A stretch of 32,827 nt of DNA from a virus, in the UHGV virus genome UHGV-1342882; one strand, given 5' to 3'. The notes under the pieces are model-generated. The model saw only the letters and a list, made by a program, of their open reading frames with translations. It was not told the DNA's origin and ran no database searches. Position numbers and translations under genes: made by a program. Each line of letters begins with the position of its first letter. The first letter of the stretch is position 1. Below, piece after piece: positions 1 to 16,552 of this stretch.

Positions 1-773
1 GCCGCTGGGAGTACAACGTCCAGGAAGGGAAAGAAGATGACGTTGGCAACATCGTACACAAGTACGAGCCGATTCCGGTGCAAAATGTTGAGCCGACGCT
101 GGGTATCGGCGCGCCAACCGACAAAGTGTTTATGATCGAAGAAGCCCAGCGTCCGGGCGAGTATATGACCGCGTTTGAAGATGAGCACGGCACTTACATC
201 ATGAACTCGAAAGATCTGCGCGCCATCGCCCATGTAGAACGCCTGACCAAAATGGGCGTGCATTCGCTGAAAATCGAAGGTCGTACCAAATCTTTCTACT
301 ATTGTGCACGCACCGCACAGGTTTACCGCAAAGCTATCGATGACGCCGCTGCGGGAAAACCGTTCGATACCAGCCTGCTGGAAACTCTGGAAGGTCTGGC
401 GCATCGTGGCTATACCGAAGGTTTCCTGCGTCGTCATACTCACGACGATTATCAGAACTACGAATACGGTTATTCAGTTTCTGACCGCCAGCAGTTTGTT
501 GGTGAGTTTACCGGTGAGCGCAAGGGGGACCTCGCGGCGGTAGCGGTGAAAAATAAATTCTCCGTTGGCGACAGCCTTGAGCTGATGACGCCGCAAGGCA
601 ACATTAATTTTACCCTTGAGCACATGGAAAACGCCAAAGGCGAAGCTATGCCGATAGCACCAGGCGATGGTTATACTGTGTGGCTCCCGGTCCCGCAGGA
701 TCTTGAGCTCAATTACGCGCTGCTGATGCGTAATTTCTCCGGGGAAACCACGCGTAATCCCCACGGTAAGTGA
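1..773 (+). CDS. yegQ: 3' portion of U32-family protein YegQ (RlhA); 5' end lies outside the window
   Basis: Reading frame is open from the window edge through 78..773 (no stop in frame from position 3); translation ends ...RNPHGK; position directly upstream of cyaR matches the E. coli yegQ-cyaR arrangement as I recall it. Confidence 0.7.
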   Translation, partial: RWEYNVQEGKEDDVGNIVHKYEPIPVQNVEPTLGIGAPTDKVFMIEEAQRPGEYMTAFEDEHGTYIMNSKDLRAIAHVERLTKMGVHSLKIEGRTKSFYYCARTAQVYRKAIDDAAAGKPFDTSLLETLEGLAHRGYTEGFLRRHTHDDYQNYEYGYSVSDRQQFVGEFTGERKGDLAAVAVKNKFSVGDSLELMTPQGNINFTLEHMENAKGEAMPIAPGDGYTVWLPVPQDLELNYALLMRNFSGETTRNPHGK

Positions 774-857
774 TTAATTTCGATTATTTTTCCCGGATGG
801 AAAATTCTTAGAAACCGATCACATACAGCTGCATTTATTAAGGTTATCATCCGTTTC

Positions 858-944
858 GCTGAAAAACATAACCCATAAAATGCTAGCTGTACCAGGAACC
901 ACCTCCTTAGCCTGTGTAATCTCCCTTACACGGGCTTATTTTTT
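858..944 (+). ncRNA. cyaR: CyaR (RyeE) Hfq-dependent sRNA; its 3' terminator hairpin overlaps the phage att core
   Basis: Sequence gctgaaaaacataacccataaaatgctagctgtaccaggaaccacctccttagcctgtgtaatctcccttacacgggcttatttttt matches my memory of CyaR; hairpin ctgtgtaa/ttacacgg followed by T-tract. Ends are approximate and not computed. Confidence 0.55.
918..944. repeat. attL core; 27 bp identical to the reverse complement of the P2 att core (aatctcccttacacgggcttatttttt)
   Basis: 923..944 is repeated exactly at 32631..32652; recalled P2 core AAAAAATAAGCCCGTGTAAGGGAGATT. Confidence 0.8.
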
Positions 945-1012
945 GCCTGTAATCTACTGAAATAAATGGATTTATTTCTTACAATGTCCACACATTGACC
1001 ACATCAAACAAA

Positions 1013-1039
1013 CCCCGTCCACAAGGCGGGGTTTTCTTC
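1013..1039 (+). terminator. Rho-independent terminator (hairpin ccccgtc/ggcgggg followed by ttttcttc), likely insulating the prophage from host read-through
   Basis: 7-bp stem with 5-nt loop and T-tract, read directly from sequence. Confidence 0.5.
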
Positions 1040-1109
1040 AAAGGCAAACACGCTAATACTTGAAAGTTATCGCAACCTAAAAGGTTCATACTGCTATGGA
1101 GTTGGAAGC

Positions 1110-2075
1110 ATGAAGCTATACATCATCGGGAATGGGTTTGATCTGCATCACGAACTTGACACGAGCTATTTCTCATTTGGGGATTATCTTCGGAAGAAAG
1201 ATCGAGACATTTACGATCACTTGGTTGAGTTTATGGGATTTACTGACTTACCCCCTTCTCTTTCCGCAGTTGATAAGTCAAAACATTCTCTTTGGTCTGA
1301 TTTCGAAAACAGCTTAGCGGGTCTGGATACAGAGTCGGTGCTCGAAGAGTTTAGCTATCTTTTACCCCAAATTAGCAGCCCCGATTTTCGTGACAGGGAC
1401 TGGAACTCATTATCCATTGAAATGGAACGTATACTAGAAAATTTAACCGAGGGACTTTTAACACAATTCAAGTCATTTATATTGCAGGTTAACTACCCCG
1501 AACTTAATTTAAAAAAAAGATTGCGTATCGATTCTGATTCTATCTTTATCAGTTTTAATTACACTGACACTCTTCAGAAATATTATAGTATTGATGATAG
1601 ACAAATTTTATATATTCATGGGAAAGCATCATCAGATCAACAGTTGATTTTAGGTCATGGTATTGACCCTATCAACTTTGAAGAAAAGGAAGCAGTCCCG
1701 CCCGAAAATGCAACCGATGAAGAACTTGAAGAGTGGCGTCAGTGGATGGCTGATAATTACGATCACTCTTATGAAATGGGAAAGCAGACTATTAATAAAT
1801 ACTTCACTTCTTCTTTTAAGAATACTGAAAAAGTCATTGCTGACAGCGCTAAATTTTTTAAAAATCTCAGTAACGTAGACGAAATCATCATCATCGGCCA
1901 TTCGTTATCATCTGTAGATGTTCCCTACTTTTCTTTTATACATAGCATTGTTAGTAAAAATACGGAATGGATAGCCACCTATTATCAGGAAACTGAGCGT
2001 GAAGCACATCATACAACATTATGTGAGATTGGCATTAAATCTCCCAAACTGATTTCAGTAAGTAAACTTCTATAA
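1110..2075 (+). CDS. AbiH-like abortive infection protein (phage defense cargo)
   Basis: N-terminus MKLYIIGNGFDLHHELDTSYFSFGDYL matches the AbiH family signature as I recall it; AT-rich island; GGAG 8 nt upstream of ATG; lies between attL and the last tail gene. Confidence 0.6.
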   Translation: MKLYIIGNGFDLHHELDTSYFSFGDYLRKKDRDIYDHLVEFMGFTDLPPSLSAVDKSKHSLWSDFENSLAGLDTESVLEEFSYLLPQISSPDFRDRDWNSLSIEMERILENLTEGLLTQFKSFILQVNYPELNLKKRLRIDSDSIFISFNYTDTLQKYYSIDDRQILYIHGKASSDQQLILGHGIDPINFEEKEAVPPENATDEELEEWRQWMADNYDHSYEMGKQTINKYFTSSFKNTEKVIADSAKFFKNLSNVDEIIIIGHSLSSVDVPYFSFIHSIVSKNTEWIATYYQETEREAHHTTLCEIGIKSPKLISVSKLL

Positions 2076-2657
2076 ATAGAACAAAATATCACCCAGAGGG
2101 CGGGGGTTTTTATACGTTCCCTCCCCCTTAGCTAGAGATCCTTTTATCAAAACTTCGTGCATCATTTTGCAAAACCCAAATAAAAGCAAACTAGCCGCCA
2201 GCCCGCGCCGCACAAGGCTTCACAATATCCGCCCCCGAAAACCATCGGATACAACCGAATCATTTTGATCGTCACGGAAACTAAAACGATCCTTTTAAAA
2301 ACATCATGTTATCCAGTCGGTTAGCGACTGGCGACGCGGTGACTTTTGCAAAGTGCTGCAAATCTTTGCGCAGAGTGCAAACGCCCGCAGGATGCAAAAG
2401 CCCAGCAGCGGCGCAGGCTGGCGGGGTGCTTTGCACAAAATTTCTTTTGCAAAATTTTTATGATCCAAACTGCGCAGGCGGGTGCGGTGTAGCGCCGTTT
2501 CCGTCTTGGATCCGCTTCCGTCTGCCTGCTGTCGCTTACGCTGTGGGCCGCTGTTGAACAAACGAAAGAAAGGCCGCACGGTGGCGACCTTTAATATTTG
2601 CGCCTGCTGTGGCGCGTTCTGTGGTGTCTGGTGAGGTGTGCGGTAATGCCGTTTTTG

Positions 2658-4382
2658 TCAGGCTATCAGGGGACCGTATTTGCTTTTCAATGTACCGGTT
2701 TTAGTGGCCGTTGCGCTGAACTGCGCAGCCTGCCCGCTGGCCCCTGTGTTGGGGTGAGTATGTGACGCGGCAGTCTCTGCCAGTTCCCTCACCACGTCCA
2801 GGGTGTCGGTGAGTAGTGTCAGGACGTTAATCTCTTCGCTTCCCAGTTTTACCACCGGGGCAATCAGCTGTTGCGCCTGGGCCACACTTCGGCGGATACC
2901 GCTGATTTTCTCAGTCAGTGCGCCGCTGACGTTTGACGTGACATTCCCTTTCACGTCGTCTGTAACATCGCCCGCGACGTCCCGTTTTGCGTTCCGGCCA
3001 ACACTGACGGAATTGTCCTTGCTGCAGGTTACTGTCAGGTTGCCGGATGTGCCGATACTGTAATCACCCTCGCTGATATGGACCACCGCCCCGGCCAGAA
3101 GAGTGGCCGTGCCAAGCACGGTTGTTTTATCCGTTGCCTGGACCGTAGTTTCACGGACAACCACTTTGCGGATCTCTTCGTCGGTGGTGACTTCGCGCAT
3201 CATGGAGTTTTCGCGGATTGTCTGGTCCGTCTGGCGTTCCCAGTCTCCGGCAACCGTCACGCGCTGCGATACACCATCGCGCTGTTGCTGCAACTGCTCG
3301 CCGGGTTTAACCGCTGGCAGGTTATGACCCTCCGCCATAATCTGGCGCACGAAGGGCTTATCCTGCCGCCCCTCAGTGAACCCGATTTCAACCAGCGTGC
3401 CAGGGGGCGGAAACTGGAACATTCCCGACTCGCTGCCCGCCATTGGTACAGGTAGCGGAACGGCAGAATAAACCGGCGTATTTGCGGCTGGCTTGCCGTA
3501 TTCGTCAAGCAGCTGGAGATCCACGGCATAGCGCGGGCGGAATGGATCGGCAATATTACCCCCTGAAACATCCTCGCTTGGCGCTTCCACCCTGGCGAAT
3601 TTTGGAAGATGCAGGCCGCTTGCCAGCTCCGGGAATGCGTTTTCAATCTGCCGCTGAATGGGTGATTTTTGCAATGGCTGGCCGTTGGCTTTGTTGCGTG
3701 GCTGCCAGGTGATTGTCATGTCGTCGTTATTTAGCCGGACCTGGTTTAACCGCTGGCCGTTCACCTCAGCACCCGGGCGCAGGCTCTGAATCATCGGCAC
3801 AACCATTGAATTGCCGCCCGCCGATGCCTGGCTAAATTCGTGCGGGATCTCTACTGGTTTACCCGCAAAAAGACTGTGCTCAGCAGCACCGACGAAGACA
3901 TCCCCGTCCGGCAGCTGATACCAAAGATAATCCGTCACTGAAAATGCTCGGCCCAGACTGGCAAAAAGCTGGTAGCCCGTGCCGCTGTGCGTAAAGTGGG
4001 GGATCGGTTTATCTGCATAAGCAGCGCCGACCGGCGTTGTGACGGTCAGCCCGCTTTGCTCACTTATCCAGTCAGTAATCTGGCGCAACGTTGGATGCTG
4101 GAAAGAACACGGCCACAATTTATCAAAGATGCCGACCAGCTCACGCACGAACAACCGGCATGTTCCATTATCAGCAGGCTGTGACCGTTCGACGTATCCG
4201 GTAAACCAGCGCAGGACCAGACCATCATAACCAACATCGATACGCACCATTTTGCCGGTGTAATCTGTCTCTGTCCCCGCCGTAATAACCCCCCGACCGC
4301 ACGCGTTCAGCTCCAGCACGATATTGCAGTCAATCAGATGGACCGGATCAGAGGAAAGGTACAGGCGTTTAATTGGTTTCAT
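2658..4382 (-). CDS. Putative baseplate hub / central spike protein (gpD/gpV- or VgrG-like); terminal gene of the tail operon
   Basis: 574 aa; C-terminal half has short repetitive beta-strand-like segments (VTCSKDNSVSVG, VAGDVTDDVKGNVTSNVSG) and an HTHPNTG motif near the C-terminus; position at distal end of late operon. Weak, position-based call. Confidence 0.35.
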   Translation of the reverse strand: MKPIKRLYLSSDPVHLIDCNIVLELNACGRGVITAGTETDYTGKMVRIDVGYDGLVLRWFTGYVERSQPADNGTCRLFVRELVGIFDKLWPCSFQHPTLRQITDWISEQSGLTVTTPVGAAYADKPIPHFTHSGTGYQLFASLGRAFSVTDYLWYQLPDGDVFVGAAEHSLFAGKPVEIPHEFSQASAGGNSMVVPMIQSLRPGAEVNGQRLNQVRLNNDDMTITWQPRNKANGQPLQKSPIQRQIENAFPELASGLHLPKFARVEAPSEDVSGGNIADPFRPRYAVDLQLLDEYGKPAANTPVYSAVPLPVPMAGSESGMFQFPPPGTLVEIGFTEGRQDKPFVRQIMAEGHNLPAVKPGEQLQQQRDGVSQRVTVAGDWERQTDQTIRENSMMREVTTDEEIRKVVVRETTVQATDKTTVLGTATLLAGAVVHISEGDYSIGTSGNLTVTCSKDNSVSVGRNAKRDVAGDVTDDVKGNVTSNVSGALTEKISGIRRSVAQAQQLIAPVVKLGSEEINVLTLLTDTLDVVRELAETAASHTHPNTGASGQAAQFSATATKTGTLKSKYGPLIA

Positions 4383-4389
4383 CGTTTAA

Positions 4390-4932
4390 TTACCCCAGCG
4401 CATCGTTGACCGGCTTTAAGACCTTTTCTTCAAACCAGCTCATTTTGTCGGCTGGTTCATCAGCACCGGCAGCCGGACCCGCGCCCTTTGCCCCTGTTTG
4501 CCTGGTGGTGGCCGTCGCGTTGCCTTTTCTGGCCTGTCGTTTTTCCGGGACGCTGCCTTTTTCACGCAGGGTGAAACTTACCTGCCAGGCAAGGCGATCC
4601 TCCTGCGGTACGGCATCAATCTGACCGGTGAACGTGGCTTCACGAAGGTTGATAGCCGTTGCCGTCGCATTGGCAACACGGTACTTTTTCAGTGCTCCGC
4701 TGGCTTCGGTTGCGGATGCCAGCTGAAAAAGCCGCTGTAAAACGGCTTCATCGTCGAATGTCACCAGACCCGACACGCGCAGCTCTTTGGCCTTGATACC
4801 CTGTTCAGCATTGGCCGTGCTCGATGTCTGGCCCGACTGGTCCTTCTCCTGAAACTGCATGGAAGGTGAAACCAGCATGTTCTGCATGGCGATCCCTTCA
4901 CCATCAAGCGCGAGTAATGCGGTCTGGCTCAT
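4390..4932 (-). CDS. Hypothetical tail/baseplate-associated protein
   Basis: 180-aa ORF within the tail operon, co-oriented and tightly packed; no family recognised. Confidence 0.4.
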   Translation of the reverse strand: MSQTALLALDGEGIAMQNMLVSPSMQFQEKDQSGQTSSTANAEQGIKAKELRVSGLVTFDDEAVLQRLFQLASATEASGALKKYRVANATATAINLREATFTGQIDAVPQEDRLAWQVSFTLREKGSVPEKRQARKGNATATTRQTGAKGAGPAAGADEPADKMSWFEEKVLKPVNDALG

Positions 4933-5674
4933 GTAGCATCCTCCCTAAGTCAGATAACGAATCCCCGATAAACATCATCGCGGCGGTATGCACTGCCGTT
5001 GTTTGCGGGATGCCTTTCAGCAATTCAGCGGCAGCAACGGCATAACTCCCGCTGTAACTGAATGAAAAAATATTCGCACTGGCGGCTTTCAGGTCGTCCA
5101 GTCCCTGGCTGAGTGAGGACAGCAAACCGGCCCGTTCCTGAATAAATCCCGTCACCTGGTTTTTTAGATCTGTTGTGGTGGTACTGACTGCGGCGGCCAG
5201 CTGCGCGGCGGCAACACGCCGGGCATTCAGCGCCAGCCGGTTGGTTGAGACTGATAACGGCGCACTGGCTGGCAATACATCGGCTTTAACCGGCAACTGC
5301 ATTTTTACCGTGCTGAGTTCTGCGGCGGCTGCCGCCATGCGGCTTACCTGCGTAAAAACGGGGGCAGGAAATACGGTGGACAGTTTATTCAGCCCCTGCA
5401 TAAATGCGTCGTGGGTATTCTCCGCTACCATCATGACGATAACATCGCCGCTACCGCCACCGGATAACAGCTTTTTAGCAAGATATCCCATCGCATTGGC
5501 CGGACTAAGATAAGCGCCTGAATCCGTGGACTGCCCCAGCCCATACACCCACGGATGGGCCGGAATGATTGAACAGGATAATGCCGACATATCATCGGCA
5601 ATCCTTATAATTGAATCACGCCACATCGGCAGGTTGCTCCGGCCAGACAATATCTGTCGCTGAGTCGGTATCAA
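4904..5674 (-). CDS. Hypothetical tail-associated protein (start uncertain; alternative starts near 5626 or 5590)
   Basis: 256-aa ORF, Ala/Ser-rich; longest-ORF start overlaps the tail fibre assembly gene by 59 nt, so the true start is probably internal. Confidence 0.4.
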   Translation of the reverse strand: MIPTQRQILSGRSNLPMWRDSIIRIADDMSALSCSIIPAHPWVYGLGQSTDSGAYLSPANAMGYLAKKLLSGGGSGDVIVMMVAENTHDAFMQGLNKLSTVFPAPVFTQVSRMAAAAAELSTVKMQLPVKADVLPASAPLSVSTNRLALNARRVAAAQLAAAVSTTTTDLKNQVTGFIQERAGLLSSLSQGLDDLKAASANIFSFSYSGSYAVAAAELLKGIPQTTAVHTAAMMFIGDSLSDLGRMLHEPDRITRA

Positions 5675-6053
5675 TGCGCATCAGCGATACCCTGTATTCA
5701 CGCCAGGCAGTAAAAAGCGCTTTTTCTGCGTCCGTCGCTTTACCCAGATCAACGGCATCCTGCAAAGGTGCCAGGATATTGCTGGCCGCAGCCATCAGGG
5801 CAGATTTTTGCGTCTCAGCCCTTACGATTGATTCTTCTTCAGAAAGCGGTAGGGGGTCAGAAAGGACCGGCTGACCATATTCATTTGGGATGATGATACG
5901 CCCTGAACTCTTATCAATCAGATACTGATACCAGCGCTCAGAAATCAACAAGGCGTCAGCAGGCCAGCCCAGTTCCGATTTTTCATAATCTGGCTTCAAC
6001 GAAAGGAAGAAAAATCCATTCATGGAAGCACTGTAATAATATTGCTCATCCAT
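5616..6053 (-). CDS. Tail fibre assembly protein (Tfa / gpG-like chaperone)
   Basis: 145 aa directly downstream of the tail fibre gene; N-terminus MDEQYYYSASMNGFF is typical of enterobacterial phage Tfa proteins as I recall. Confidence 0.7.
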   Translation of the reverse strand: MDEQYYYSASMNGFFFLSLKPDYEKSELGWPADALLISERWYQYLIDKSSGRIIIPNEYGQPVLSDPLPLSEEESIVRAETQKSALMAAASNILAPLQDAVDLGKATDAEKALFTAWREYRVSLMRIDTDSATDIVWPEQPADVA

Positions 6054-6056
6054 TTT

Positions 6057-7979
6057 TTAATATCCCGTTGCCAGCCAGAACAAAGGAAAGCCCTGGTTTG
6101 CGTTAAGCCTTGCCGTCGTATTGGAATATTGCGACACCGAACATTCGAGCGTCCCGGCCACATTCGAGGTAAAAGGCGTGACCTGAATATTCCGGCACGC
6201 ATTCGGGAATGCGATCGGGAACGTAATATTTTGATAACCGGACGTCTGGTTCGTGTAACCCCACTGACGGATCCTTCCTGTTGTTCCGTCGCGCTCCCAG
6301 CCGTTTTGCCCCAGGCTGGCCGTATTCTTCAGGTTATAGCGTGCGTCGCTCTCGGCTTTTGTATACGACCCAATCGACCCCGCCGAAATGGTGATGTTTG
6401 CTGTACCGTTAAATGCCACGCCGTTGATGGTGCGGGCGGTTTGCAATTGTGACGCTGAAACCGCATTACCATTTGACGCAAGAGCGCCAATCTCTGCCGG
6501 GGTGGGCTTGTTCGCCACATCATAGGCTTTTGTCCATGCAGACCAGGTGCCACCATAAAGCGTTCGGGCATAACTGCGGGAATTGTTGTACACGCGATAA
6601 ATTTGCGTGATTCCGGCATGCTTAAGGACTTCAAGAGAACCCGCGATCGCCTCCGGGTAATTCGTCCCGGTTTGCGCCTGCGCGTTCGCGGGCTGGTAAT
6701 AAAGCCCTGGCGTGGTGTAGTTGTTCAGATTTGCTGCATTACCAATCCCTTCGGCCAACCGAAAAATATCAGACGGGAAAAGATCGATATTACTCGATAG
6801 CGCTCGACCGTTAACCGTTCGTGTTGAGGGCACGCGACTATTAGCATTATCGTTAGCCGCCTTAACTGCTTTCGGCGTCGCGGCGACGGCTTCCGACTCG
6901 CTGTCGGTGGCGCTGCTCAGTTGAATAATCCCTTTCTGCGCTGTCGTAGCGTCCTGCGCGGTGTATTTACCTTTCGCCAGGTCATAGGTTGCCTTAACCG
7001 CTTTCGGCGTTGCCGCTACTTCTTCAGAATCGCTATCCGTGGCGCTGCTTAATTGCGTGAATCCCTTTGCGGTTGTGGTGGCGTCCGGGTGGTTGCGTGA
7101 TTGTTCGTGTTTTTTCAGCGCATCACTGGCCTGTTGCTCGTTCAGCGTACCTTTTGGACGAAGATCGGTAATGACGCCGTTTGCGTCGATACTCGCAAGG
7201 GCAAACACGAAATGTTGCTCACCATTCTGCACGTAATCTTTAAGGTCGGCGGCAACCGTGATTTTGCTTTGTACCGCCCAAATGCTCGTAAGCGTTCCCA
7301 TCCACGCCACATCCAGCCAGACCTTAACCGGCTTTGTTGACACGGTAATATTCTGGTTTGCGGCCAACACTGAACGCAGACCGGCAAGGTATCCAGTACC
7401 TTTAGTGACAAAATACTGGGTGCCTGTTTTCGCGACCAGATAACCCGCATCAAAGAACGACGCCGCACCATACAGATCGATATTTTCGCGGCGCTGGCGT
7501 TCATCCATTGCCGCCAGACGGGCAGTAAAATCAATCTGCCATGTCTCTGCCGGGGTGGTAATTTCCGTTGCTTCCCTGGCTCCGCTGTATTCCATCAGCA
7601 TGGAACGGACCAGAACGTTTCCCTGCTGGCCGTTCGCATTTTTGATTTTACGCTGGGTCGGGGCATGAATAATCATCGCCAGTGTACCGGTGGCTTTATT
7701 TGCCAGACCGATCCAGTTGAAATCAAAATCACCCACATCTGCCCCCATCGTGACGGAATAAACGACAGAGTTTTCATTCACAACACCGGATTTACTCACC
7801 ACCTGACGATAAACAATTTTATCCGCTGCGGGTGCTGTCTCGGTATTATCAATCGGCTTATCAGCATCCAGCCCCGGAATATACGCGAAAATAAATTCAT
7901 CCAGCGTGACGGGCTGATTATTAATAGCCTGCTGGGCTTTCCACTCTGTAAATGCTTTTGTAATAACAGCCTGTGACAT
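6057..7979 (-). CDS. Tail fibre protein
   Basis: 640 aa; contains the collar segment HEQSRNHPDATTTAKGFTQLSSATDSDSEEVAATPKAVKATYDLAKGKYTAQDATTAQKG that closely resembles the P2 gpH segment I recall; internal tandem duplication of the QLSSATDS..VAATPKAVKA motif. Confidence 0.8.
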   Translation of the reverse strand: MSQAVITKAFTEWKAQQAINNQPVTLDEFIFAYIPGLDADKPIDNTETAPAADKIVYRQVVSKSGVVNENSVVYSVTMGADVGDFDFNWIGLANKATGTLAMIIHAPTQRKIKNANGQQGNVLVRSMLMEYSGAREATEITTPAETWQIDFTARLAAMDERQRRENIDLYGAASFFDAGYLVAKTGTQYFVTKGTGYLAGLRSVLAANQNITVSTKPVKVWLDVAWMGTLTSIWAVQSKITVAADLKDYVQNGEQHFVFALASIDANGVITDLRPKGTLNEQQASDALKKHEQSRNHPDATTTAKGFTQLSSATDSDSEEVAATPKAVKATYDLAKGKYTAQDATTAQKGIIQLSSATDSESEAVAATPKAVKAANDNANSRVPSTRTVNGRALSSNIDLFPSDIFRLAEGIGNAANLNNYTTPGLYYQPANAQAQTGTNYPEAIAGSLEVLKHAGITQIYRVYNNSRSYARTLYGGTWSAWTKAYDVANKPTPAEIGALASNGNAVSASQLQTARTINGVAFNGTANITISAGSIGSYTKAESDARYNLKNTASLGQNGWERDGTTGRIRQWGYTNQTSGYQNITFPIAFPNACRNIQVTPFTSNVAGTLECSVSQYSNTTARLNANQGFPLFWLATGY

Positions 7980-7990
7980 AGGTTTTTCCT

Positions 7991-8590
7991 CTACTTCAAA
8001 CTTGCGCTGTATGTTATTTGGGGCTGGTTATTCACATCACTCAGGGTGGCATAACAGCAAATATATTCCCCCTGATACCAGCCAATATTGATATTCAGTG
8101 GCAGGGATGTGATCACTTCAAACTGGTAACGGCGGCATGTACGCCCATATTTACGGATAATTTCCAGCAGGAGATCGCCATTTTCCGCAATCTGACTATT
8201 TGTCACCCGAACGACAATCACATCCCAGTCGAGTCCGTCCTGCCGTTCCAGTAATTCAACATAACCAATCCCCAGTCGCTCAAAAATGGCAATAAAGCCC
8301 GCCACCTCTCCGGCCTGCTGCGCATTGATAAATGCGTAGCTCACCCGTTTGCGGAAGATGTCGAGCGGCTCCCCCTTAAACCGATCGATATCGCGTTCCC
8401 AGGCAATCAGGTTTAACAGCGGTTCGGGGCAGACCAGCGGGTCAAACTGCTTTAACGGCCAGGAGATCCACCCGTACACCTGCGACCAGAACTTCACGCA
8501 GGCCCGCAGCAGCCTGGCGGGGTCGCCTTTGTTCAGCCACGACGGCAATTTCAGACCGGCAAGCAACTTTGAAAACTCAGTCATTCTCAA
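7991..8590 (-). CDS. Baseplate/tail protein (gpI-like, DUF2313-type)
   Basis: 199 aa immediately downstream of the baseplate J-like gene and upstream of the tail fibre; call is mainly positional. Confidence 0.5.
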   Translation of the reverse strand: MRMTEFSKLLAGLKLPSWLNKGDPARLLRACVKFWSQVYGWISWPLKQFDPLVCPEPLLNLIAWERDIDRFKGEPLDIFRKRVSYAFINAQQAGEVAGFIAIFERLGIGYVELLERQDGLDWDVIVVRVTNSQIAENGDLLLEIIRKYGRTCRRYQFEVITSLPLNINIGWYQGEYICCYATLSDVNNQPQITYSASLK

Positions 8591-9761
8591 TCTCCACCGT
8601 TAACCCTGACAGGCGCGGGACCGACAGTTCGCTGACAATATCCGTCAGTGAAAAATGCAGTGAATCGACAACCGGAAAAGCCTTGTGGATCTCGCGGCCC
8701 AGATTCGAAAAGGAATAGCGCGAATAGGGCTGCGTCTTCTTAACGTCGTAATTGGCGTTCTCGCGAAACGCGCAACGAATCAGGTCGGTAATACCTGTTT
8801 TTAACGCGCTCAGGTCTTCCGCTTCCATGTTTTCCACGCTTTTGACGTATACCGTTACCGCCAGGGTGTGGCTGGTTTCCGGCATGGCATAACACTGCAA
8901 ATCATCACCGTGTCCGTGGTGGCCCTGGGTATTCACATAGTCGTTAACCGCATCAATAAAGGGTTGTGATATTTCGCCACTGTCCAGCAACAGGTAAGCA
9001 TTTGCCGTACCCGGTCCCCGTGGGGCATCGTGCAAAAAGTAAATGCGATCAACGCTCAGGCCCAGCACGCTGGCAATCATGCTGCGGTAAATAGCGTCAG
9101 AGTGATAATTCCCCACCAGATTAAACTGGTTGCGGGTACGGTCGCGCAGCTCGTCGTCGCTTTCCTCGTTGGCTCCCGGCGAAATCAGCCATTCGTCCTC
9201 ATTGACCGCGCTGGCAATCCCGGCCACCGCAACGGGTAAAATCCGGTAATAGCCTGGCGCAAGGTTATAGCCGCTGCCGGTGCCGGTCGCCGTGACGGTA
9301 ACCAGCCCGCTTTCAACCCCGGCAGGCAGCGTCACGTCTTCATTCACCGCCAGCACGTAAACCACGCCGTTAATGCGCTCGGTTTGCACCAGTGTTCCGG
9401 CAGGCACGACGACCACATCCGCCGCGTTCAGCTTGTAGAACCGCAGCACGCCAGCGGCAGCGCTGGCCGGTTTAGGCACGATATGAACCGCCCAGGCCAG
9501 CAGGCGCAGCATGGGACCGGTGGCCGTCGCAACAAACATATTGCGTAGAACCACATCGATCATCGCCGCCCGCAGCCATAACACCGGCGTGGTGACAATC
9601 TTCGAAATCAGCCGCCAGAAAGGCGACATCCTCGACGTGTTTGTGACGAACCCTTCCGCCTGCACGGTGGCTTTAAACGCTGCCTTAATTTCGGCCTCTG
9701 TCGCAGGCATCCCGCTGTCATTCAGTACCTTTTCAAAATCAACGTCGGGTTTCTCAGTCAT
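8577..9761 (-). CDS. Baseplate J-like protein (gpJ / Mu gp47 family)
   Basis: 394 aa; size and position between wedge protein and gpI-like gene; resembles baseplate J family by recall. Confidence 0.65.
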   Translation of the reverse strand: MTEKPDVDFEKVLNDSGMPATEAEIKAAFKATVQAEGFVTNTSRMSPFWRLISKIVTTPVLWLRAAMIDVVLRNMFVATATGPMLRLLAWAVHIVPKPASAAAGVLRFYKLNAADVVVVPAGTLVQTERINGVVYVLAVNEDVTLPAGVESGLVTVTATGTGSGYNLAPGYYRILPVAVAGIASAVNEDEWLISPGANEESDDELRDRTRNQFNLVGNYHSDAIYRSMIASVLGLSVDRIYFLHDAPRGPGTANAYLLLDSGEISQPFIDAVNDYVNTQGHHGHGDDLQCYAMPETSHTLAVTVYVKSVENMEAEDLSALKTGITDLIRCAFRENANYDVKKTQPYSRYSFSNLGREIHKAFPVVDSLHFSLTDIVSELSVPRLSGLTVEIEND

Positions 9762-10089
9762 AGTTAACCTCTGTACTGACAGGGCCGAAATCGTAGGTTT
9801 CCGCCGTGATATACAACCTCGAAAGGGTTTCTTCGGTGATCACTATGGTTCCTGGGACCAGACGTTCGTCGCTTTCCACCAGTAAGGACAGTTGCGTCAG
9901 CACGTCACCGCGCATTGTCGGGCTGCGTTCACCGATCAGGCGGGTGGTGATACCGCTTTCCAGAATGCTGTGAATAATGTCCTGGGTGATGCTGTCGCGG
10001 TTATCGCAACGGCGCGGCTCGTTGCCGCTATCCAGCGTGAAATCGCCGTCAGTGATCAAAAGGTCGATGTATAACGGTTCGGTACTCAT
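9754..10089 (-). CDS. Baseplate wedge protein (gpW/gp25-like)
   Basis: 111 aa; segment SITQDIIHSILESGITTRLIGERSPTMRGDVL follows the same pattern as the P2 gpW segment I recall (ISQSIGDILRTPVGSRVMRRDYGSLL). Confidence 0.45.
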   Translation of the reverse strand: MSTEPLYIDLLITDGDFTLDSGNEPRRCDNRDSITQDIIHSILESGITTRLIGERSPTMRGDVLTQLSLLVESDERLVPGTIVITEETLSRLYITAETYDFGPVSTEVNYD

Positions 10090-12194
10090 CCTGCGTTAAG
10101 CTCCTGCCATTCAGCCAGCTGGGCCGGGGTGATTCCATTGGGGGCGTTGATGTAGGTATCGCCCCACGTTTTACGGTTATCAACAGCGGTTTTGCTGTCG
10201 CTTTTAACCTGACTCATCAGGCCGCCGCGTGGGATGCCTGCATTAATTCGGTTCCCCGTCAGCACGGACGGGCTGTTCAGCTTCGATGAACCTGCAGCAC
10301 TGTCAGGAATGACCGCATTTGCCGGAACGGCAGCCGGTGGCGAAACGGTTTTTAGGTCGATGTTTACGCCGGGGATCTTGTTTAACTTCTCAACAATCCA
10401 GTTATAGGTAGACGCAAAGGTATTTTTGAGGACGTCAAAAAGTTTGCTGAATACCCCGCCGATGGTTTGTGCGAACCCTTCAAAGGTGGCAAGCGGGGAA
10501 AGACCGGCAAAGAAATCAACCACCACGGCCCAGCCGTCTGTGATGGACTGCCAGACCTGCGCAAACACCTGGCCTACCTGTTCAGCGACCGACATCACCC
10601 AGGCAAAAGCCGACGTATCCATGATTGCTGCTGCCAGTTCTTCCCAGTGGGTGATGACGTACCAGACCCCCACGGCCAGAAGTGCCAGCCCGGCAACGAT
10701 CAGGGTGATCGGACTCATCAGGAGTTGCATTGCCGCCCCGGCAAACATGGTCGCCGCACCGTAAACCCGCATGGCAATGGCTCCGGCCTTTAACGCGATA
10801 TTCCATGCAGCAAGCGCGATGCGGCAGACGCCCGTCCACAGCGCCAGTAATTTTGACTGGATCCACAATGCAGCCAGACCGATGCGCGTCGTCAGCAGGG
10901 ACGGACGCAACAGGTTGAGCGTCCATAACAGGAGTTTCCATGCCCCGCCCAGCACTTTTGCAATTGCGGCCAGCCCTGTCATGGTGAAGCCAAAGACCCC
11001 CATCACGATATTGACCGCCGCCCCGGCCAGCCCGAAGGACAACACGCCCAGGGTGATGTAACCCAGCCAGCGGGCAATATTCGGGAACATATCCAGCCAG
11101 CGGGCAAATTTTGCCCCCACGTCGGCAATACGGTTCATCAGCGGCGACAGAATAGGGATCAGCGTGTTACCAATCGCCACGCGAATGGCAAAGAATGTCG
11201 CTTTGATACGTTTCCACGGCTCAGCCATTCGTTCGGCCATTTCCTGGGCGCGTTTCATCCCGTCATTTCGGCCCAGCTCGGTGATGCTGCGATTTAATTT
11301 ATCCTGCTGACCGTACAGCTTTTTGATAACGTCAGCACCACCACCGAACGCGGAATCCAGCGCCTGTTGTGCCTTGACGTTCCCTTCAATGCTCTGCCCG
11401 TATTTGTTCTGGAGTTTTTGCAGAATGTCGCCCATCGGCAGCATTTTTCCGGTGGCATCGACAAAGCTCATACCCAGCTTTTCAGCGGCAGCCGGGGCGC
11501 TGCGTAAAAACTGCTCGTAGATCCCGCTGGCCTCAGTACCCAGCGTGCGCGAAAGCGTACCCAGGACGGCGAACTGTTCATCCAGGCTAACGCCAAAGTC
11601 AGCACCGGCGCTTTTCGTCCCCTCGATAAGCTCCTGCATGGTCTGCATTTTCACGCCGAAGTTTTGCACCATGTACGCCGTTTTCCCTGCCAGCTCTTCG
11701 GCAAAACGCACATGGCCCAGACTGGACAACTCCGCGTTGAAGCGTGACGCCATCGCGCCGATGTATTCTCCTGCCTCTTCGCCGCTGGCCTTGACGCCTG
11801 CCGCCAGGGTATTGGCCGCGATGGTGACGCGGGGCAGGTCCAGATCGGACAGACCCGCCATTGCGCCTTTCATCGCGTAGCTTGACCGGACCACATCAAC
11901 GGCCCCTTTGCCGTAGCGCATACTGAATCGCATGGCTTCGCCGGACAGACGCTTCAACGCGTCCTCTGCCACGCCTTTGGAACCTACTTCTGCAAGTGCG
12001 GCGTTCATCTCATACGCCGGCCCCACCACGCCCGCGATGGACTGTGCCACGCCCCAGACAGCCGCCGCACCGATCCCGATTTTTGTAAAAGACGCCTGCG
12101 ATTTTTCGGCAAAGCCGGACAGCGAAGACTGGGCCGTCTTTAATGGCCGCGTCAGCTTATCGATCAGGCTCAGGGTAAAATCCAGGTGGCTCAT
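10086..12194 (-). CDS. Tail tape measure protein
   Basis: 702 aa, Ala/Gly-rich with hydrophobic membrane-like segments in the C-terminal half; directly downstream of the frameshifted chaperone pair. Confidence 0.75.
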   Translation of the reverse strand: MSHLDFTLSLIDKLTRPLKTAQSSLSGFAEKSQASFTKIGIGAAAVWGVAQSIAGVVGPAYEMNAALAEVGSKGVAEDALKRLSGEAMRFSMRYGKGAVDVVRSSYAMKGAMAGLSDLDLPRVTIAANTLAAGVKASGEEAGEYIGAMASRFNAELSSLGHVRFAEELAGKTAYMVQNFGVKMQTMQELIEGTKSAGADFGVSLDEQFAVLGTLSRTLGTEASGIYEQFLRSAPAAAEKLGMSFVDATGKMLPMGDILQKLQNKYGQSIEGNVKAQQALDSAFGGGADVIKKLYGQQDKLNRSITELGRNDGMKRAQEMAERMAEPWKRIKATFFAIRVAIGNTLIPILSPLMNRIADVGAKFARWLDMFPNIARWLGYITLGVLSFGLAGAAVNIVMGVFGFTMTGLAAIAKVLGGAWKLLLWTLNLLRPSLLTTRIGLAALWIQSKLLALWTGVCRIALAAWNIALKAGAIAMRVYGAATMFAGAAMQLLMSPITLIVAGLALLAVGVWYVITHWEELAAAIMDTSAFAWVMSVAEQVGQVFAQVWQSITDGWAVVVDFFAGLSPLATFEGFAQTIGGVFSKLFDVLKNTFASTYNWIVEKLNKIPGVNIDLKTVSPPAAVPANAVIPDSAAGSSKLNSPSVLTGNRINAGIPRGGLMSQVKSDSKTAVDNRKTWGDTYINAPNGITPAQLAEWQELNAG

Positions 12195-12195
12195 A

Positions 12196-12653
12196 TCAGT
12201 TTCCGTTAAATGCGATTGCTATCCCTTCCGCCGTCTTACTGGCGCGGGTCTGGGCGAAATATTCATCCAGCCACAGGGCGCGGGCGATGCTTTCTTCGTC
12301 GTCGGCTTCGTGCGGGAGGTAGTAGCGGCGCAGGGCAAGGTATTGCTCAAGCGCATTTGTGCGAATGGCCGCTACCCGCGCCATCAGTTTTTTACTTCGA
12401 TCTCAAGTTTGGGGGAGTAAATCTCGTTAACTTTCTCGACGATCTGCATTTCGCAACCCGGATAATCTTCCATCAGCTTGTTAAGCGCCTCTTTACACTC
12501 GGCATCAACAATGCGGCCCAGATACGTCACCATAGGGGCAACCTTATTGGTCATGGTCATTTCGTTAAGCAGGTTGTTAAACGCGGTTTTATTCGGCTCA
12601 AAGCTCAGATTTACGCCCGCCACGGTCATGGCGATTTTTTTCGATTTGCTCAT
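12196..12653 (-). CDS. Tail assembly chaperone fusion product (gpE+E'-like) made by programmed -1 ribosomal frameshift at 12387..12393
   Basis: Slippery heptamer A AAA AAC (mRNA sense) at 12387..12393; the -1 frame continues as ...KKLMARVAAIRTN... which is the 62-aa ORF 12196..12384. Confidence 0.55.
12384..12653 (-). CDS. Tail assembly chaperone (gpE-like)
   Basis: 89-aa ORF immediately upstream of the tape measure gene, ending ...IEVKN with an A AAA AAC slippery heptamer at its 3' end. Confidence 0.6.
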   Translation of the reverse strand: MSKSKKIAMTVAGVNLSFEPNKTAFNNLLNEMTMTNKVAPMVTYLGRIVDAECKEALNKLMEDYPGCEMQIVEKVNEIYSPKLEIEVKN

Positions 12654-12946
12654 TGTGCTAATTCCTTACGTTGTCGAATGATGCCCACCAGGGCGTTATG
12701 TCGGGCGGCGCAGTCGGTATACATCAGCCGGTAGGCTTTCAGCGCCGCGTCAAAGTCATTTCCGGTCGGTCCGGCCAGACGTGGCAGCGTGACCGGGCAA
12801 AGTGTCAGCTGGTTTTCCTGATAATTTTCGTTCGGCTTGATCTGCACTTTCGTTGAACAACCGGACGTAATCATCAGAAGCGCAAACGTTGCTAAAAACC
12901 GGCTTAATGGTTTCCGTGCGGATAACCCGTTCCGTGTGAATTTCAT
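12650..12946 (-). CDS. Outer-membrane spanin (Rz1/LysC-like lipoprotein); starts inside the Rz gene in another frame and extends past its stop
   Basis: Signal peptide with lipobox-like ITSGC followed by a short mature region; overlap architecture like P2 lysB/lysC. True start may be internal. Confidence 0.5.
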   Translation of the reverse strand: MKFTRNGLSARKPLSRFLATFALLMITSGCSTKVQIKPNENYQENQLTLCPVTLPRLAGPTGNDFDAALKAYRLMYTDCAARHNALVGIIRQRKELAQ

Positions 12947-13139
12947 TGGCCCTCAGCTCCGCGAGTTTTGCTTCCAGCGCTTCACCAGACTGCTGCGTCA
13001 CCTCAACAACAATCTGGCGCGTTTGTTCTGCCGCTTCACTGGCAGCGAGTTTCAGCTTTGCGTCGTGCCAGTCATGCGCCTGCCAGCCCGCTGACATCGC
13101 AGCGACCAGAATCAGCAAAAGACCCAGCAAATTGCGCAT
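12756..13139 (-). CDS. Inner-membrane spanin (Rz/LysB-like)
   Basis: 127 aa with N-terminal hydrophobic segment (LLGLLLILVAAM) and coiled-coil-like charged remainder; directly downstream of the endolysin. Confidence 0.6.
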   Translation of the reverse strand: MRNLLGLLLILVAAMSAGWQAHDWHDAKLKLAASEAAEQTRQIVVEVTQQSGEALEAKLAELRANEIHTERVIRTETIKPVFSNVCASDDYVRLFNESADQAERKLSGKPADTLPGHAATSGRTDRK

Positions 13140-13477
13140 CAGCGAACCCCGTTATGCTCAAGACTGAAATGGTTGCCGTCCGGCTTACTGAAACGTCCAC
13201 CCCACGATCCGCCGATAGATTCCCAGTATTCGCCCAGGGGGCGGTATGCGGCGCTGTCGGTCTGGTATTCGCCGTTAATAAACAGGTTAAAATCCACCGC
13301 GAGGCGCTGGGTATGCAGGCTGTTAGCAATGCCACTCCCTTTTTTTGCGTTAAGCGCGGCCTGTTCCGGCGTGCGGTACGCTTCGCCAAACGTCAGGCGA
13401 TAGCCCTTTTCTTCGGCAAAATGAATCAGGTTGGCGATCATCACCGTGAAAAGTTGCTGTTTTTCACTCAGTTTCAT
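13139..13477 (-). CDS. Endolysin, M15-family peptidoglycan peptidase
   Basis: 112 aa with His...Asp...His metal-site pattern (SLHTQRLAVDFNLF ... GNHFSLEH) typical of M15 peptidases; sits between holin and spanins. Confidence 0.7.
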   Translation of the reverse strand: MKLSEKQQLFTVMIANLIHFAEEKGYRLTFGEAYRTPEQAALNAKKGSGIANSLHTQRLAVDFNLFINGEYQTDSAAYRPLGEYWESIGGSWGGRFSKPDGNHFSLEHNGVR

Positions 13478-13775
13478 TGCGCTTGCTCCCCCATCGCTTG
13501 ATATACATATCCAGGCAGCGCTTTAACCCGGCCTCAATAAACGCACTTCCCAGAATGCCTAGGGCGCAGGCCAGCCCAATGACGACCAGTTCCGGCATAT
13601 CGGGGAATTTCAGCAGCGGGATTGCGGCCAGTGGTGCGACCGCAGATCCCAGAATCATCCGCCCGACCAGCAGACGGGTTGTGATTCGCTCATTGCTGAC
13701 CATCAGTTGCCCCAGGCCGATCACGGCCCCGATAAGCAACAGCTTTTCAAGCAGTGACGTTTCTCCGTTCATCAT
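13464..13775 (-). CDS. Holin
   Basis: 103 aa with about three hydrophobic transmembrane segments and a charged C-terminus (KRWGSKRNETE); immediately upstream of the endolysin. Confidence 0.6.
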   Translation of the reverse strand: MMNGETSLLEKLLLIGAVIGLGQLMVSNERITTRLLVGRMILGSAVAPLAAIPLLKFPDMPELVVIGLACALGILGSAFIEAGLKRCLDMYIKRWGSKRNETE

Positions 13776-13779
13776 CGTG

Positions 13780-14235
13780 TCAGCCTTTCAGATCGCGAGT
13801 GTCACGGGCTGACAGGTACGGAACGCCGTCAATCGCGACAAAGTCCGGGCTTGTCACCATGAATTTAATTTTCTTCGTGGTTTTGCTGGCCTCGTTGGGG
13901 TTGATGTTGACGATGTCGGACAGCGTCGGAACGCAGCCAAACACCTCGATTTTTTCTTCGTCGTCCCCGGCGTTGGCGTAGAACAAAAAGTCCTTTGCCG
14001 GAATGGCTCGCCAGGAACCTGCGGCACGGGCAACGGCGGTAAACTTTTTAAAGTTCTGGGAATCGACTTCGACTTCCACATCCGCCGAAACTGACCCTTT
14101 CGTGTGGCCGTTCGGGATGCCACGCGACTGCGCAACGGCGCTGTTGTCCGTAATGGTGACGGTGGCGTTTTCGACGTGAATCATGATGCTGTCGTAGTTC
14201 ACATCGAACGATCCGCCGCTAATACGTTCAGTCAT
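13780..14235 (-). CDS. Tail tube protein
   Basis: 151-aa ORF directly downstream of the sheath gene; size and position typical of contractile-tail tube proteins. Confidence 0.55.
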   Translation of the reverse strand: MTERISGGSFDVNYDSIMIHVENATVTITDNSAVAQSRGIPNGHTKGSVSADVEVEVDSQNFKKFTAVARAAGSWRAIPAKDFLFYANAGDDEEKIEVFGCVPTLSDIVNINPNEASKTTKKIKFMVTSPDFVAIDGVPYLSARDTRDLKG

Positions 14236-14238
14236 TGA

Positions 14239-15381
14239 TTAGCTCTCCAGTGAGGTGTCCAGTTCGATGCTGACGCTGATTTCTTTCGCGCTCTCATACG
14301 GTCGAACCACAAGGTAAATCTGTACCGCTTCGCTACTGGTCCAGGTGATGGTGATGTCACCGTCCTTTGGTGGCTTCACTTCGCCCGGAAATTCGACGCC
14401 ATTGATCTGGGTTGAAATCGCCATTTCACGCAGCGGCTTGCCGAAATAGGTTTCATGCGCGGCAATGCTGCCCGGTGTGCTGTTCAGCGAACGATCGGCA
14501 ATTTTGGGGATAGCACGCAGACGGACGCGGCGGGATGCTTTATCAACCACGCGCACGTTTTCAATGACCTGATAATCGCCGCCTTCAACGTCCAGGGTGC
14601 GACCGTCAGCCCAGTAGATGCCGTCATAGTCGTGATACCACATCGGCACGCTGTAGCGGTTCGCCTGCAGGGACTGCAACACGGACAGATCAATTTCGGC
14701 TCCCGTCCCGTCAACCGGCAGTGTGTCACGCCCCAGCGCGGTGACTGCGCCAGTTGCAACGCGGGCGGGGCTGTCTGCCACCGTCACCGAACGGTTACAC
14801 AAGCGACCGGCCAGGACGCCGGGTTCATTGCCCCACAGACGCGGGACCAGTTGCACACCCGGTGACGCAATACCGTCCTGGAGTTGTGCCAGGCGCGTCA
14901 CATAATCGGCCCATGCTTCGCCCTGTTTTGGCCCGCCTATCGCAAGGCCAAACCAGATAAATCGCCCATAATTAGCCTGCAAGGTGATACGCATTTCCAT
15001 TGCGCGGTTGATGGTTGCCACTTCGTCGGTATCAAATACCAGGAAAACCCCTTCCACGGATGCCACGCTCTGGGCCATCTTGACCGCGTTCATCCAGTCT
15101 TCGTCTGGTTTATAGCCCTCGGCTTCCTTGTCTGGCTCTGCCAGCACATGCACGTAAGCAAACCAGTTCTGACCGGCGTTATTGGCCGCTGCGGCCACCA
15201 TATTTTTTAACGGGCTGTCTTTGTCGCCCAGGGCTTTATCCAGATCGCTGTCGGTATTCAGCGACTGGGTTTTCCCGATGTTAGTGTCGCCGTAACCCAC
15301 AAAGAGGATGACGCGCTCGACGTCGTTCGTTGTGCCGTTGAAGCGGTTTTTCTGACTGACGTTGACATTCGGCCAGGTCAT
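14239..15381 (-). CDS. Tail sheath protein (non-P2 type, DUF2586-like)
   Basis: 380-aa ORF upstream of the tube gene; does not resemble the P2 FI sequence I recall; resembles Mu-type sheath-like proteins. Confidence 0.55.
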   Translation of the reverse strand: MTWPNVNVSQKNRFNGTTNDVERVILFVGYGDTNIGKTQSLNTDSDLDKALGDKDSPLKNMVAAAANNAGQNWFAYVHVLAEPDKEAEGYKPDEDWMNAVKMAQSVASVEGVFLVFDTDEVATINRAMEMRITLQANYGRFIWFGLAIGGPKQGEAWADYVTRLAQLQDGIASPGVQLVPRLWGNEPGVLAGRLCNRSVTVADSPARVATGAVTALGRDTLPVDGTGAEIDLSVLQSLQANRYSVPMWYHDYDGIYWADGRTLDVEGGDYQVIENVRVVDKASRRVRLRAIPKIADRSLNSTPGSIAAHETYFGKPLREMAISTQINGVEFPGEVKPPKDGDITITWTSSEAVQIYLVVRPYESAKEISVSIELDTSLES

Positions 15382-15383
15382 TT

Positions 15384-16079: not shown

Positions 16080-16552
16080 GACGCGTCACCACGCTGGACA
16101 ATAAATTCCAGTTGCGACGCCTCCCAGATTTCGGGGTTTACGATGTCCCATTTCTTACCCTTGAAGGGGATCGGCCCTTTTTCCACTTCGCGCAGGACCA
16201 GCGGATCAACCAGCGGGACAACCACATCCAGAATGCATGACCCTTCGTCGTCGAACTCCGGGTCCACGGTGGGATCGGCTAACTTCAGCTCGTCGCGCAG
16301 CTCGTTGGCGAATTCATCCACCCAGGCCAGCACCAGGGCATAAATCAGCCCCGGCGAATATTTGCGGTAGGGGAAGTCATCCCACGACAAACGGGCGGTA
16401 TAAGTCAGCACCCCGATCCGGCGCTGGTTGTTCCCCAGCGCTTTGGCGTTGCGTACCAGCTCGCAATCCTCCATTGAACTGGAAAACATCTGCATGGCAT
16501 CAGGCGGCAGATTTGCCGTAATAAACGCCGTCAGGCTTTCAAGCTGGCTCAT
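16076..16552 (-). CDS. Tail completion protein (gpR-like)
   Basis: 158 aa; shares a VLAW motif and similar size with the P2 gpR sequence I recall; position after the head completion gene. Confidence 0.45.
   Translation of the reverse strand: MSQLESLTAFITANLPPDAMQMFSSSMEDCELVRNAKALGNNQRRIGVLTYTARLSWDDFPYRKYSPGLIYALVLAWVDEFANELRDELKLADPTVDPEFDDEGSCILDVVVPLVDPLVLREVEKGPIPFKGKKWDIVNPEIWEASQLEFIVQRGDAS

Follow-up and report, generated by a model that had tools for sequence, protein, structure and literature searches.

UHGV virus genome UHGV-1342882, the 32,827-nucleotide (nt) stretch of DNA that we analyzed as a whole and call the window, holds a prophage of ~31.7 kb bounded by repeats of its attachment site (att), and directly inside the left repeat (attL) lies a gene, at positions 1110 to 2075, that encodes an intact, stand-alone protein of the AbiH family. 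On balance, we favor a reading in which this gene is a discretely inserted cargo cassette, or moron, in an apparently intact mosaic prophage, and in which its product is a single-gene antiphage system that depends on residues N150 and H170, uses nicotinamide adenine dinucleotide (NAD+), and protects the lysogen. We attribute a defensive role to the protein because a homologue from Vibrio is protective, because the family has been placed among the immune SIR2-like proteins (SIRim), because the gene is cargo of a variable slot, and because it is under purifying selection. At the least, these data extend a catalogued single-gene defense family by a further copy carried on a prophage. They also provide an Escherichia coli-native AbiH cassette of ~1 kb that would be a convenient model for NAD+ depletion, its trigger, and prophage self-immunity.

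The gene encodes an intact AbiH family protein

An earlier note on this DNA, made from its letters, had called the gene AbiH-like and named profile searches as the means of checking the call; both searches returned clear matches. Residues 3 to 291 align with the entire Pfam AbiH profile PF14253 (profile positions 1 to 260 of 260) at 210.1 bits against a cut-off of 30.9 bits (E value, 7.9e-62), and the PADLOC AbiH model PDLC02345 matches the protein with an E value of 1.3e-29. The same note had treated the N-terminal signature as the hallmark of the family. Membership stands, but the GNGFD motif alone does not define the family; the full-length profile match does. Among other collections, PHROGs assigns the protein to phrog_19951, an unannotated family, and NCBIfam returned no match.

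A word-indexed search yielded 1327 homologues, and PF14253 was present in 120 of 120 among the matches listed. When 1.84 billion representatives were scanned exhaustively with HMMER, 2860 representative clusters were recovered at an E value of ≤1e-3, mostly stand-alone proteins of ~290 to 340 amino acids (aa); in the best 150 of these 2860, most were 290 to 345 aa long with one matched stretch. The gene in the window has the same single-gene architecture, with one credible open reading frame (ORF) in its cassette and neighbors that vary between contexts. It is a defense gene of an ordinary, already annotated kind: copies in E. coli that are 96% identical carry the RefSeq name "bacteriophage abortive infection AbiH family protein."

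The prototype of the family is abiH of Lactococcus lactis S94, for which phage resistance and abortive infection were described by Prevots et al. in 1996, as cited in PMC13064643. Like other members of the family, the protein in the window matches the profile over its full length, is a single chain of ~320 aa with the conserved motifs, and is carried by a mobile element; the prototype, however, resides on the lactococcal chromosome or an integrative and conjugative element, whereas the gene described here resides on an intact Peduoviridae prophage of a Gram-negative host. A more recent benchmark is a one-gene SIR2-like system, the AbiH protein of Vibrio sp. 10N.286.45.F3: its protection reached 5.7 orders of magnitude, and two phage proteins, Tlaloc and Enki, inhibit it (10.1101/2024.06.14.598830). 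Using the Vibrio AbiH sequences from the supplement of that study, we found the F3 protein to be 26% identical to ours and collinear over its full length (E value, 1e-23). The two have in common the motifs GNGFD, FNYTxTLQ, IHGKA, GHG, and IGHSxxxxDxPYF; the F3 protein is ~30 aa shorter and lacks part of a helical insert at residues 185 to 235. A second Vibrio AbiH type, other than the one with the protection data, is much closer to our protein, at 50% identity.

A predicted SIR2-like fold and a candidate active site

An AlphaFold2 model built from a 50-sequence alignment (predicted local distance difference test [pLDDT] score, 87.2; predicted template modeling [pTM] score, 0.80) displays, on structural grounds, a SIR2-type Rossmann fold, and the whole protein is predicted to be one SIR2-like domain of the immune SIRim type plus helical inserts. 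The conserved motifs are G7-N8-G9-F10-D11, F149-N150-Y-T152, H170-G, G182-H183, G263-H264-S265, and D270. Across 48 relatives of 27 to 38% identity, W62, E66, F149, N150, T152, H170, G182, H183, K237, G263, D270, and Y273 are invariant, and the G7-N8-G9-F10-D11 motif, the putative NAD loop, is at least 90% conserved. In the model, a strand at residues 2 to 6 leads into GNGFD; a strand at 145 to 148 leads into FNYTD, a helix at 154 to 159, a strand at 166 to 168, and IHG; and a strand at 258 to 262 leads into GHS. This is the order found in Sir2Tm (the sequence of PDB entry 1yc5_A), where the sirtuin motifs GAGxS, TQNID-helix-strand-LHG, and GSSL follow one another. Because the motif order matches that of sirtuins, N150 and H170 are probably the catalytic pair.

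The best structural matches of the model are the defense NADases KomC, SIR2-HerA, ThsA, and AVAST5, and in a published phylogeny AbiH falls within the SIRim immune branch, together with ThsA, DSR2, and FAM118A/B and apart from the deacetylases (10.1101/2024.09.18.613514). Both observations speak against an alternative that we consider rather unlikely, in which the protein defends the cell without bulk NAD+ depletion, by ADP-ribosylating or deacylating one particular target of the phage or the host or by producing a signaling nucleotide; the zinc-binding Cys4 module of deacylases, moreover, is not evident in the AbiH sequence. In agreement with the structural assignment, AbiH is described in the literature as a protein that "resembles sirtuins," and NAD depletion has been proposed as its mode of action (PMC13064643).

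Set against the SIRim NADases as a comparison group (ThsA of Thoeris, DSR2, SIR2-HerA or Nezha, KomC, Avs5 or AVAST5, and human FAM118B), the protein in the window differs in two respects. Unlike the SIRim systems, it carries no sensor, either fused or as a partner protein (SLOG, STAND, HerA, and DSR2 C-terminal domains are all missing), and no significant sequence-profile similarity to them was found. An NADase role for it is a prediction. AbiH is among the few SIR2-type defense proteins without a sensor domain or a demonstrated mechanism.

The prophage carries the AbiH cassette as foreign cargo

The ORF converges on the tail operon and lies beyond that operon's last gene, next to which, on the same strand, come genes for tail fiber assembly, the fiber, the baseplate wedge, and the tape measure protein. 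The guanine-plus-cytosine (GC) content is 0.34 to 0.42 over positions 1001 to 2000, compared with ~0.52 to 0.60 in the adjoining tail region. Position, strand, and composition all agree with the description of the gene in the earlier note as an AT-rich ORF of 321 aa that opposes the tail operon and sits between its last gene and attL.

Two IMG/VR prophages integrated at the same yegQ site (loci L010 and L014) reveal the empty state of the site. In both, the DNA corresponding to 700 to 1035 and 2101 to 2715 is contiguous and the intervening DNA is absent; by junction alignment, the empty site reads AAACAAACCCCGTCCACAAAACGGGGTTTTTT joined directly to AATACTTTCCCCTCCCCC. The cassette starts directly after a resident terminator (GGCGGGGTTTT, 1025 to 1035) and ends in a terminator-like repeat (Table 1), with a terminator-like site on the minus strand at 2102 to 2090. 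Together, these loci and the window form a clean natural comparison of the occupied and empty states of a defined prophage slot. They also led us to reject an arrival of AbiH together with the P2-type integrase and att module of the element: L010 and L014 share the yegQ/cyaR site, the att arm, and the flank without the AbiH gene.

In the moron concept of Hendrix and Juhala, an independently transcribed gene is said to sit between two phage genes, with a deviant GC content and a terminator of its own. The AbiH cassette is moron-like in being a discrete insertion, in its GC content of 0.34 to 0.42 against ~0.55, in its terminator-like 3′ end, and in its orientation opposite to that of the flanking operon. 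It is unlike a moron in that a scan for sigma-70 promoters did not find a promoter of its own. Expression of the gene in the lysogen is something that we infer, the promoter scan giving it no support. Read-through from cyaR or from a promoter-like site at 957 to 985 is disfavored as a source of expression because two terminators lie in between.

It could be argued that the gene is chromosomal, part of a small island beside cyaR, and only seemingly phage cargo, given that it lies within ~170 bp of the att core and persists with very little phage DNA in three reduced loci (L057 to L059). We regard this as extremely improbable. The att repeats enclose the gene, which is set apart from the att core by ~90 bp of phage DNA of the P2 type. 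Across 5,426 complete E. coli genomes, the Irrigatiovirus baseplate gene occurs in 19, and AbiH occurs in the same 19 records, with no variation, and nowhere else. In E. coli strains that lack the prophage, the match is limited to the initial ~12% of the query, that is, the cyaR flank and att-proximal DNA. The att repeats and the empty-site relatives thus bear out the proposal of the earlier note that AbiH is foreign cargo inside a prophage, beside att.

The cassette occupies a variable slot at the tail end of the prophage

We recovered 47 loci through the baseplate protein and compared the DNA downstream of the baseplate gene. The slot that holds AbiH in the window was found to be empty in some loci and to hold a variety of other genes in others (Table 1). 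Because its contents vary among these loci, we consider the slot, at the tail end beside att, a genuine cargo hotspot of Irrigatiovirus-type Peduoviridae. At least two recognized defense genes occur in it.

Two hotspots of P2 are classical, old/tin (between gpA and the portal gene) and Z/fun (among tail-related genes), and a third has been described between a tail protein and CI (iLund4u, 10.1101/2024.10.15.618418). A 2026 survey in NAR (Nucleic Acids Research) adds minor hotspots, including int-att (PMC13586616), and accessory gene hotspots of P2-like phages are also treated by Rousset et al. in 2022 (PMC9122126); in the supplement of the latter, the only cluster labeled "SIR2_2/AbiH" has a canonical GAGAS N terminus and represents a different protein type.

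The AbiH gene lies past the last tail gene, beside attL. A Z/fun-type hotspot next to att, as the earlier note had it, must be abandoned, since Z/fun is found among the tail-related genes of P2 and not at att. G and FI are the P2 gene names used in placing Z/fun; in the backbone studied here, the sheath and tube genes (14239 to 15381 and 13780 to 14235) are far from the fiber assembly gene (5616 to 6053). Nor does AbiH lie at old/tin, between A, the replication gene, and Q, the portal gene, where other cargo is found. What does characterize the slot is a changing cargo, flanked by conserved anchors, in the interval from the last tail gene to att/int/CI; its position matches the third hotspot rather than Z/fun. 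With that third hotspot it shares a small, high-turnover slot, conserved anchors, defense genes, and a corresponding position. It differs in that the tail gene order of the Irrigatiovirus backbone is unlike that of P2 and in that the AbiH cargo lies between the tail genes and att instead of between att and int.

Table 1. Features of the window and contents of the slot downstream of the baseplate gene in related loci
Feature	Position or loci	Strand	Description
yegQ, 3′ part	78-773	+	Host flank outside the element; homologous loci annotated yegQ, Peptidase_U32 domains
CyaR small RNA (sRNA) gene	856-941	+	Rfam RF00112, 100.7 bits, E 3.2e-19; 3′ terminator overlaps the att core
attL core	923-944		CCCTTACACGGGCTTATTTTTT; direct repeat D9 (918-944 vs 32626-32652)
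P2-type att arm	945-1035		Phage derived; bidirectional terminator hairpin at its end (~1012-1035); terminator-like site 1027-1012
AbiH cassette (moron), ~1.07 kb	1036-2111	+	Missing from otherwise collinear prophages; GC 0.34-0.42
Shine-Dalgarno-like GGAG	1098-1101	+	8 nt 5′ of the AbiH ATG; direct reading
AbiH family gene	1110-2075	+	ATG start, 321 aa, N terminus MKLYIIGNGFDLHH; ORF listing
Terminator-like repeat, right end of cassette	2085-2111	+	AACAAAATATCACCCAGAGGGCGGGGGTTTTT; imperfect second copy of the resident terminator AACAAACCCCGTCCACAAGGCGGGGTTTT
Noncoding block between cargo slot and tail operon	2268-2630		Includes tail operon terminator hairpin 2569-2592 (−)
Last tail gene, baseplate/hub-like	2658-4382	−	574 aa; phrog_2258, E 5.5e-275; 97% identical to SI7 gp24
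Second cargo	23333-24995	−	gpA-portal (old/tin-equivalent) interval 23275-25142; GC 0.33-0.40; no SI7 similarity over 23275-25142
RiboL-PSP HEPN protein	23333-23953	−	206 aa; Pfam; overlaps the DUF262 gene
DUF262/GmrSD_N protein	23946-24995	−	349 aa; Pfam; PADLOC NsnA 1.6e-66, PD-T4-2_A 1.3e-47
P2-type tyrosine integrase	31539-32546	+	86.6% identical to P2 Int over 334 aa; 52% to SI7 Int
attR core	32631-32652		CCCTTACACGGGCTTATTTTTT; direct repeat D9; just past the integrase gene
Slot: AbiH	L009, L012, L017, L018, L019		
Slot: empty	L010, L014; L006, L007; L022, L039; L028		yegQ site; copA site; fieF site; gapA site, respectively
Slot: 169-aa zinc ribbon/transmembrane (TM) protein	L005, L013, L026, L036, L049		phrog_13160; ~510-1020 nt past the baseplate stop
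Slot: PD-T4-10_B homologue	L033, 8414-9121		PADLOC E 1.5e-31; cut by the contig end
Slot: hexapeptide acetyltransferase	L037		phrog_2154
Slot: 328-aa BRCT domain protein and 100-aa partner	L042, L044		phrog_36782
Slot: small lipoprotein or membrane proteins	L004, L046		

Persistence of the gene and its proposed role in the lysogen

Every copy of the gene that we examined is intact, at 85 to 100% identity. The Nei-Gojobori ratio of nonsynonymous to synonymous substitution (dN/dS) is 0.33 to 0.39 (about 0.36) for AbiH, compared with 0.10 to 0.12 for the adjacent baseplate gene, which indicates purifying but relatively relaxed constraint. The two closest alleles, those of the window and L012, run opposite to the trend of the other pairs, with 6 nonsynonymous and 0 synonymous differences, too few for significance (roughly P = 0.2 under neutrality).

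In L057 to L059, the prophage has shrunk to a remnant of ~5.6 kb (L057, 1 to 5622) between yegQ and yegS, and AbiH, 85% identical, is intact within it; the gene outlasts the decay of its prophage. In order, these loci contain yegQ, attL, AbiH, the conserved noncoding block, a portal fragment, an Ogr/Delta-like gene, a gene for a 570-aa protein, the 3′ end of int, attR, and yegS. The 570-aa protein has no Pfam match in the annotation precomputed for the contig and no PHROG match. Both cargo positions have been kept in these remnants while phage genes were lost.

The mechanism that we propose for the AbiH protein begins with its synthesis in the lysogen, where it would act as a single-gene antiphage system. 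Infection by another phage would activate it, and the activated protein would consume NAD+, or otherwise use it, through the N150/H170 site. The infection would then be aborted at the cost of the infected cell, with the lysogenic population and the prophage protected. Protection of the lysogen from other phages is, in our analysis, the most likely role of the protein.

A range of results nevertheless weighs against an NAD+-using defense protein that is made in the lysogen. No sigma-70-like promoter was found by the promoter scan in the cassette upstream of the gene. The assignment of N150 and H170 derives from motif order and not from residue-level superposition. The protein has no Pfam match to the SIR2 families PF02146 and PF13289 at an E value of ≤1, and a SIR2_2 match appears in only 1 of 49 relatives (E value, 2e-4). 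Aligned with Sir2Tm by hhalign, the AbiH alignment gave an insignificant result (probability, 0.23) in which only the GHSLS/GSSLV motif was aligned, and phmmer and profile searches of the PDB sequences returned nothing relevant. Because these sequence-level tests fail or nearly fail, the link to SIR2 rests on structure. NAD+ depletion, for its part, has been demonstrated for no AbiH (PMC13064643); the nearest validated relative, from Vibrio, is as distant as stated above; and dN/dS is looser than in the neighboring baseplate gene.

Some of the same observations would suit a hitchhiking or nondefensive accessory gene, one that is silent or that serves the phage cycle or host physiology, in which case the name AbiH would be misleading here. 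A promoter was not recognized within the cassette, and constraint is relatively relaxed at a dN/dS of 0.36. A tblastn search of 50,697 phage records found no match to AbiH, and BFVD offered one weak viral structural match; the zinc ribbon/TM protein and the hexapeptide acetyltransferase that occupy the slot elsewhere are not obviously defensive. We nonetheless think such a gene quite unlikely. The ORF is intact even in the heavily deleted remnant with few phage genes, and all family-invariant residues are kept. Distant homologues occur in defense-type neighborhoods, and one homologue is experimentally protective; a 57%-identical homologue in Klebsiella lies in a CP4-57-type island, between genes for an HNH nuclease and a McrA-like nuclease.

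The carrier is a mosaic prophage

The only megablast matches to positions 945 to 25900 are three Salmonella phages of the genus Irrigatiovirus (Peduoviridae), namely, SI7, SW3, and SW5, with ~95% identity across 82% of the query. A blastn comparison with the complete SI7 genome shows the prophage to be collinear over 2163 to 5762, 6991 to 23274, 25143 to 27843, and 28098 to 29694. Because the structural, lysis, and replication proteins of SI7 all have full-length counterparts, the prophage looks intact.

Both ends of the element depart from SI7. Positions 945 to 2162 (the att arm and AbiH) have no similarity to SI7, which has a 69-aa ORF, gp26, in their place, and positions 29695 to 32652, with the immunity and integration genes, diverge from it. 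Identity with the SI7 counterparts is only 46% for the CI-like protein and 43% for the Cox-like protein, and the integrase is of the P2 type (Table 1). The att arm, too, resembles P2: positions 949 to 1037 share ~77% identity with intergenic, unannotated stretches that lie beside the integrase genes of P2 and other Peduovirus genomes (in P22H4, for example, the arm is at 22731 to 22820 and int at 22937 to 23944). This arm is collinear with that of the empty-site loci L010 and L014. The integrase and att arm being P2-like while the backbone is SI7-like, the prophage is a mosaic of an Irrigatiovirus/SI7 backbone and a P2-type integrase and att module, integrated at the 3′ end of cyaR by yegQ. 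The term "P2-like," which the earlier note had applied to the element, fits at the level of the family Peduoviridae and for the integrase and att module, but not for the backbone, which belongs to Irrigatiovirus rather than to the genus Peduovirus. The yegQ-cyaR site is presumably the classical P2 attachment region, where K-12 retains an ogrK remnant.

A terminator-like hairpin at 909 to 936 lies within CyaR. Over 971 to 1035 of the plus strand, in the att arm, Rfam reports the sRNA isrJ at 23 bits against a gathering score of 37 bits (E value, 0.18); this match, which ends at the att arm terminator, is probably noise. Within the tail region, positions 5763 to 6990 (the C-terminal half of the fiber gene and most of the fiber assembly chaperone gene) have no nucleotide similarity to SI7, and at the protein level only fiber residues 1 to 325 (85%) and the last 70 residues of the chaperone (51%) align. 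This is the usual swap of a host range cassette.

A conserved noncoding block beside the slot

A block at 2268 to 2630, which lies between the tail operon and the slot, is more conserved than the adjoining baseplate gene. Across 21 loci from several genera, its conservation is 0.81 to 0.97 per 30-nt bin, with a core at ~2418 to 2535 that is almost invariant, and it contains four conserved GATC sites and 6 to 7 TTTGCA(A/C) motifs. We rejected a coding function for the block: the candidate ORFs (91 aa at 2304 to 2579 on the minus strand; 83 aa at 2306 to 2557 on the plus strand; and SI7 gp25) show no codon periodicity and no PHROG match. A structured RNA is unsupported as well. RNAalifold gave a covariation term of +0.87, on the strand of the baseplate gene (minus) only, no covariation was found in the block beyond the tail operon terminator hairpin, and Rfam returned only subthreshold noise for it. 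In L022, that hairpin (the equivalent of 2569 to 2600) is tandemly duplicated or rearranged, and the block measures 383 nt compared with 341 nt.

The block and the terminator repeat invite a more elaborate interpretation, which we hold to be very doubtful: that the two form a dedicated Irrigatiovirus module for cargo exchange and expression control, and that AbiH senses phage directly by oligomerization. On such an interpretation, the terminator repeat, duplicated when cargo is present, could be a recombination substrate, and the block could be a methylation- or host factor-dependent switch over the inserted defense gene, whether AbiH, PD-T4-10, or others.

A second cargo between gpA and the portal gene

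The other load of this prophage occupies the old/tin-equivalent position and consists of overlapping genes for a DUF262/GmrSD_N protein and a RiboL-PSP HEPN protein (Table 1). It is flanked by the portal gene (21927 to 22988) and an Ogr-like gene (22985 to 23302) on one side and by gpA (25218 to 27851) on the other. That AbiH is a second defense cargo, with both classical hotspot positions loaded, had been suggested before. Two loads are indeed present, one of them at old/tin, but "both classical positions" is wrong, because Z/fun lies among the tail genes and AbiH is not there.

SI7 carries at the gpA-portal position the hypothetical gene gp36 and the DNA methyltransferase gp37. The SI7 regions without a counterpart in the prophage are 24564 to 25761 and 28484 to 29558 (corresponding to prophage positions 27844 to 28097 and 23275 to 25142), and the genes lacking one are two methyltransferases (gp34 and gp37) and two small genes (gp33 and gp36). 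Of the three DNA methyltransferases annotated in SI7, the prophage retains only a gp32-like one (~28149 to 29012).

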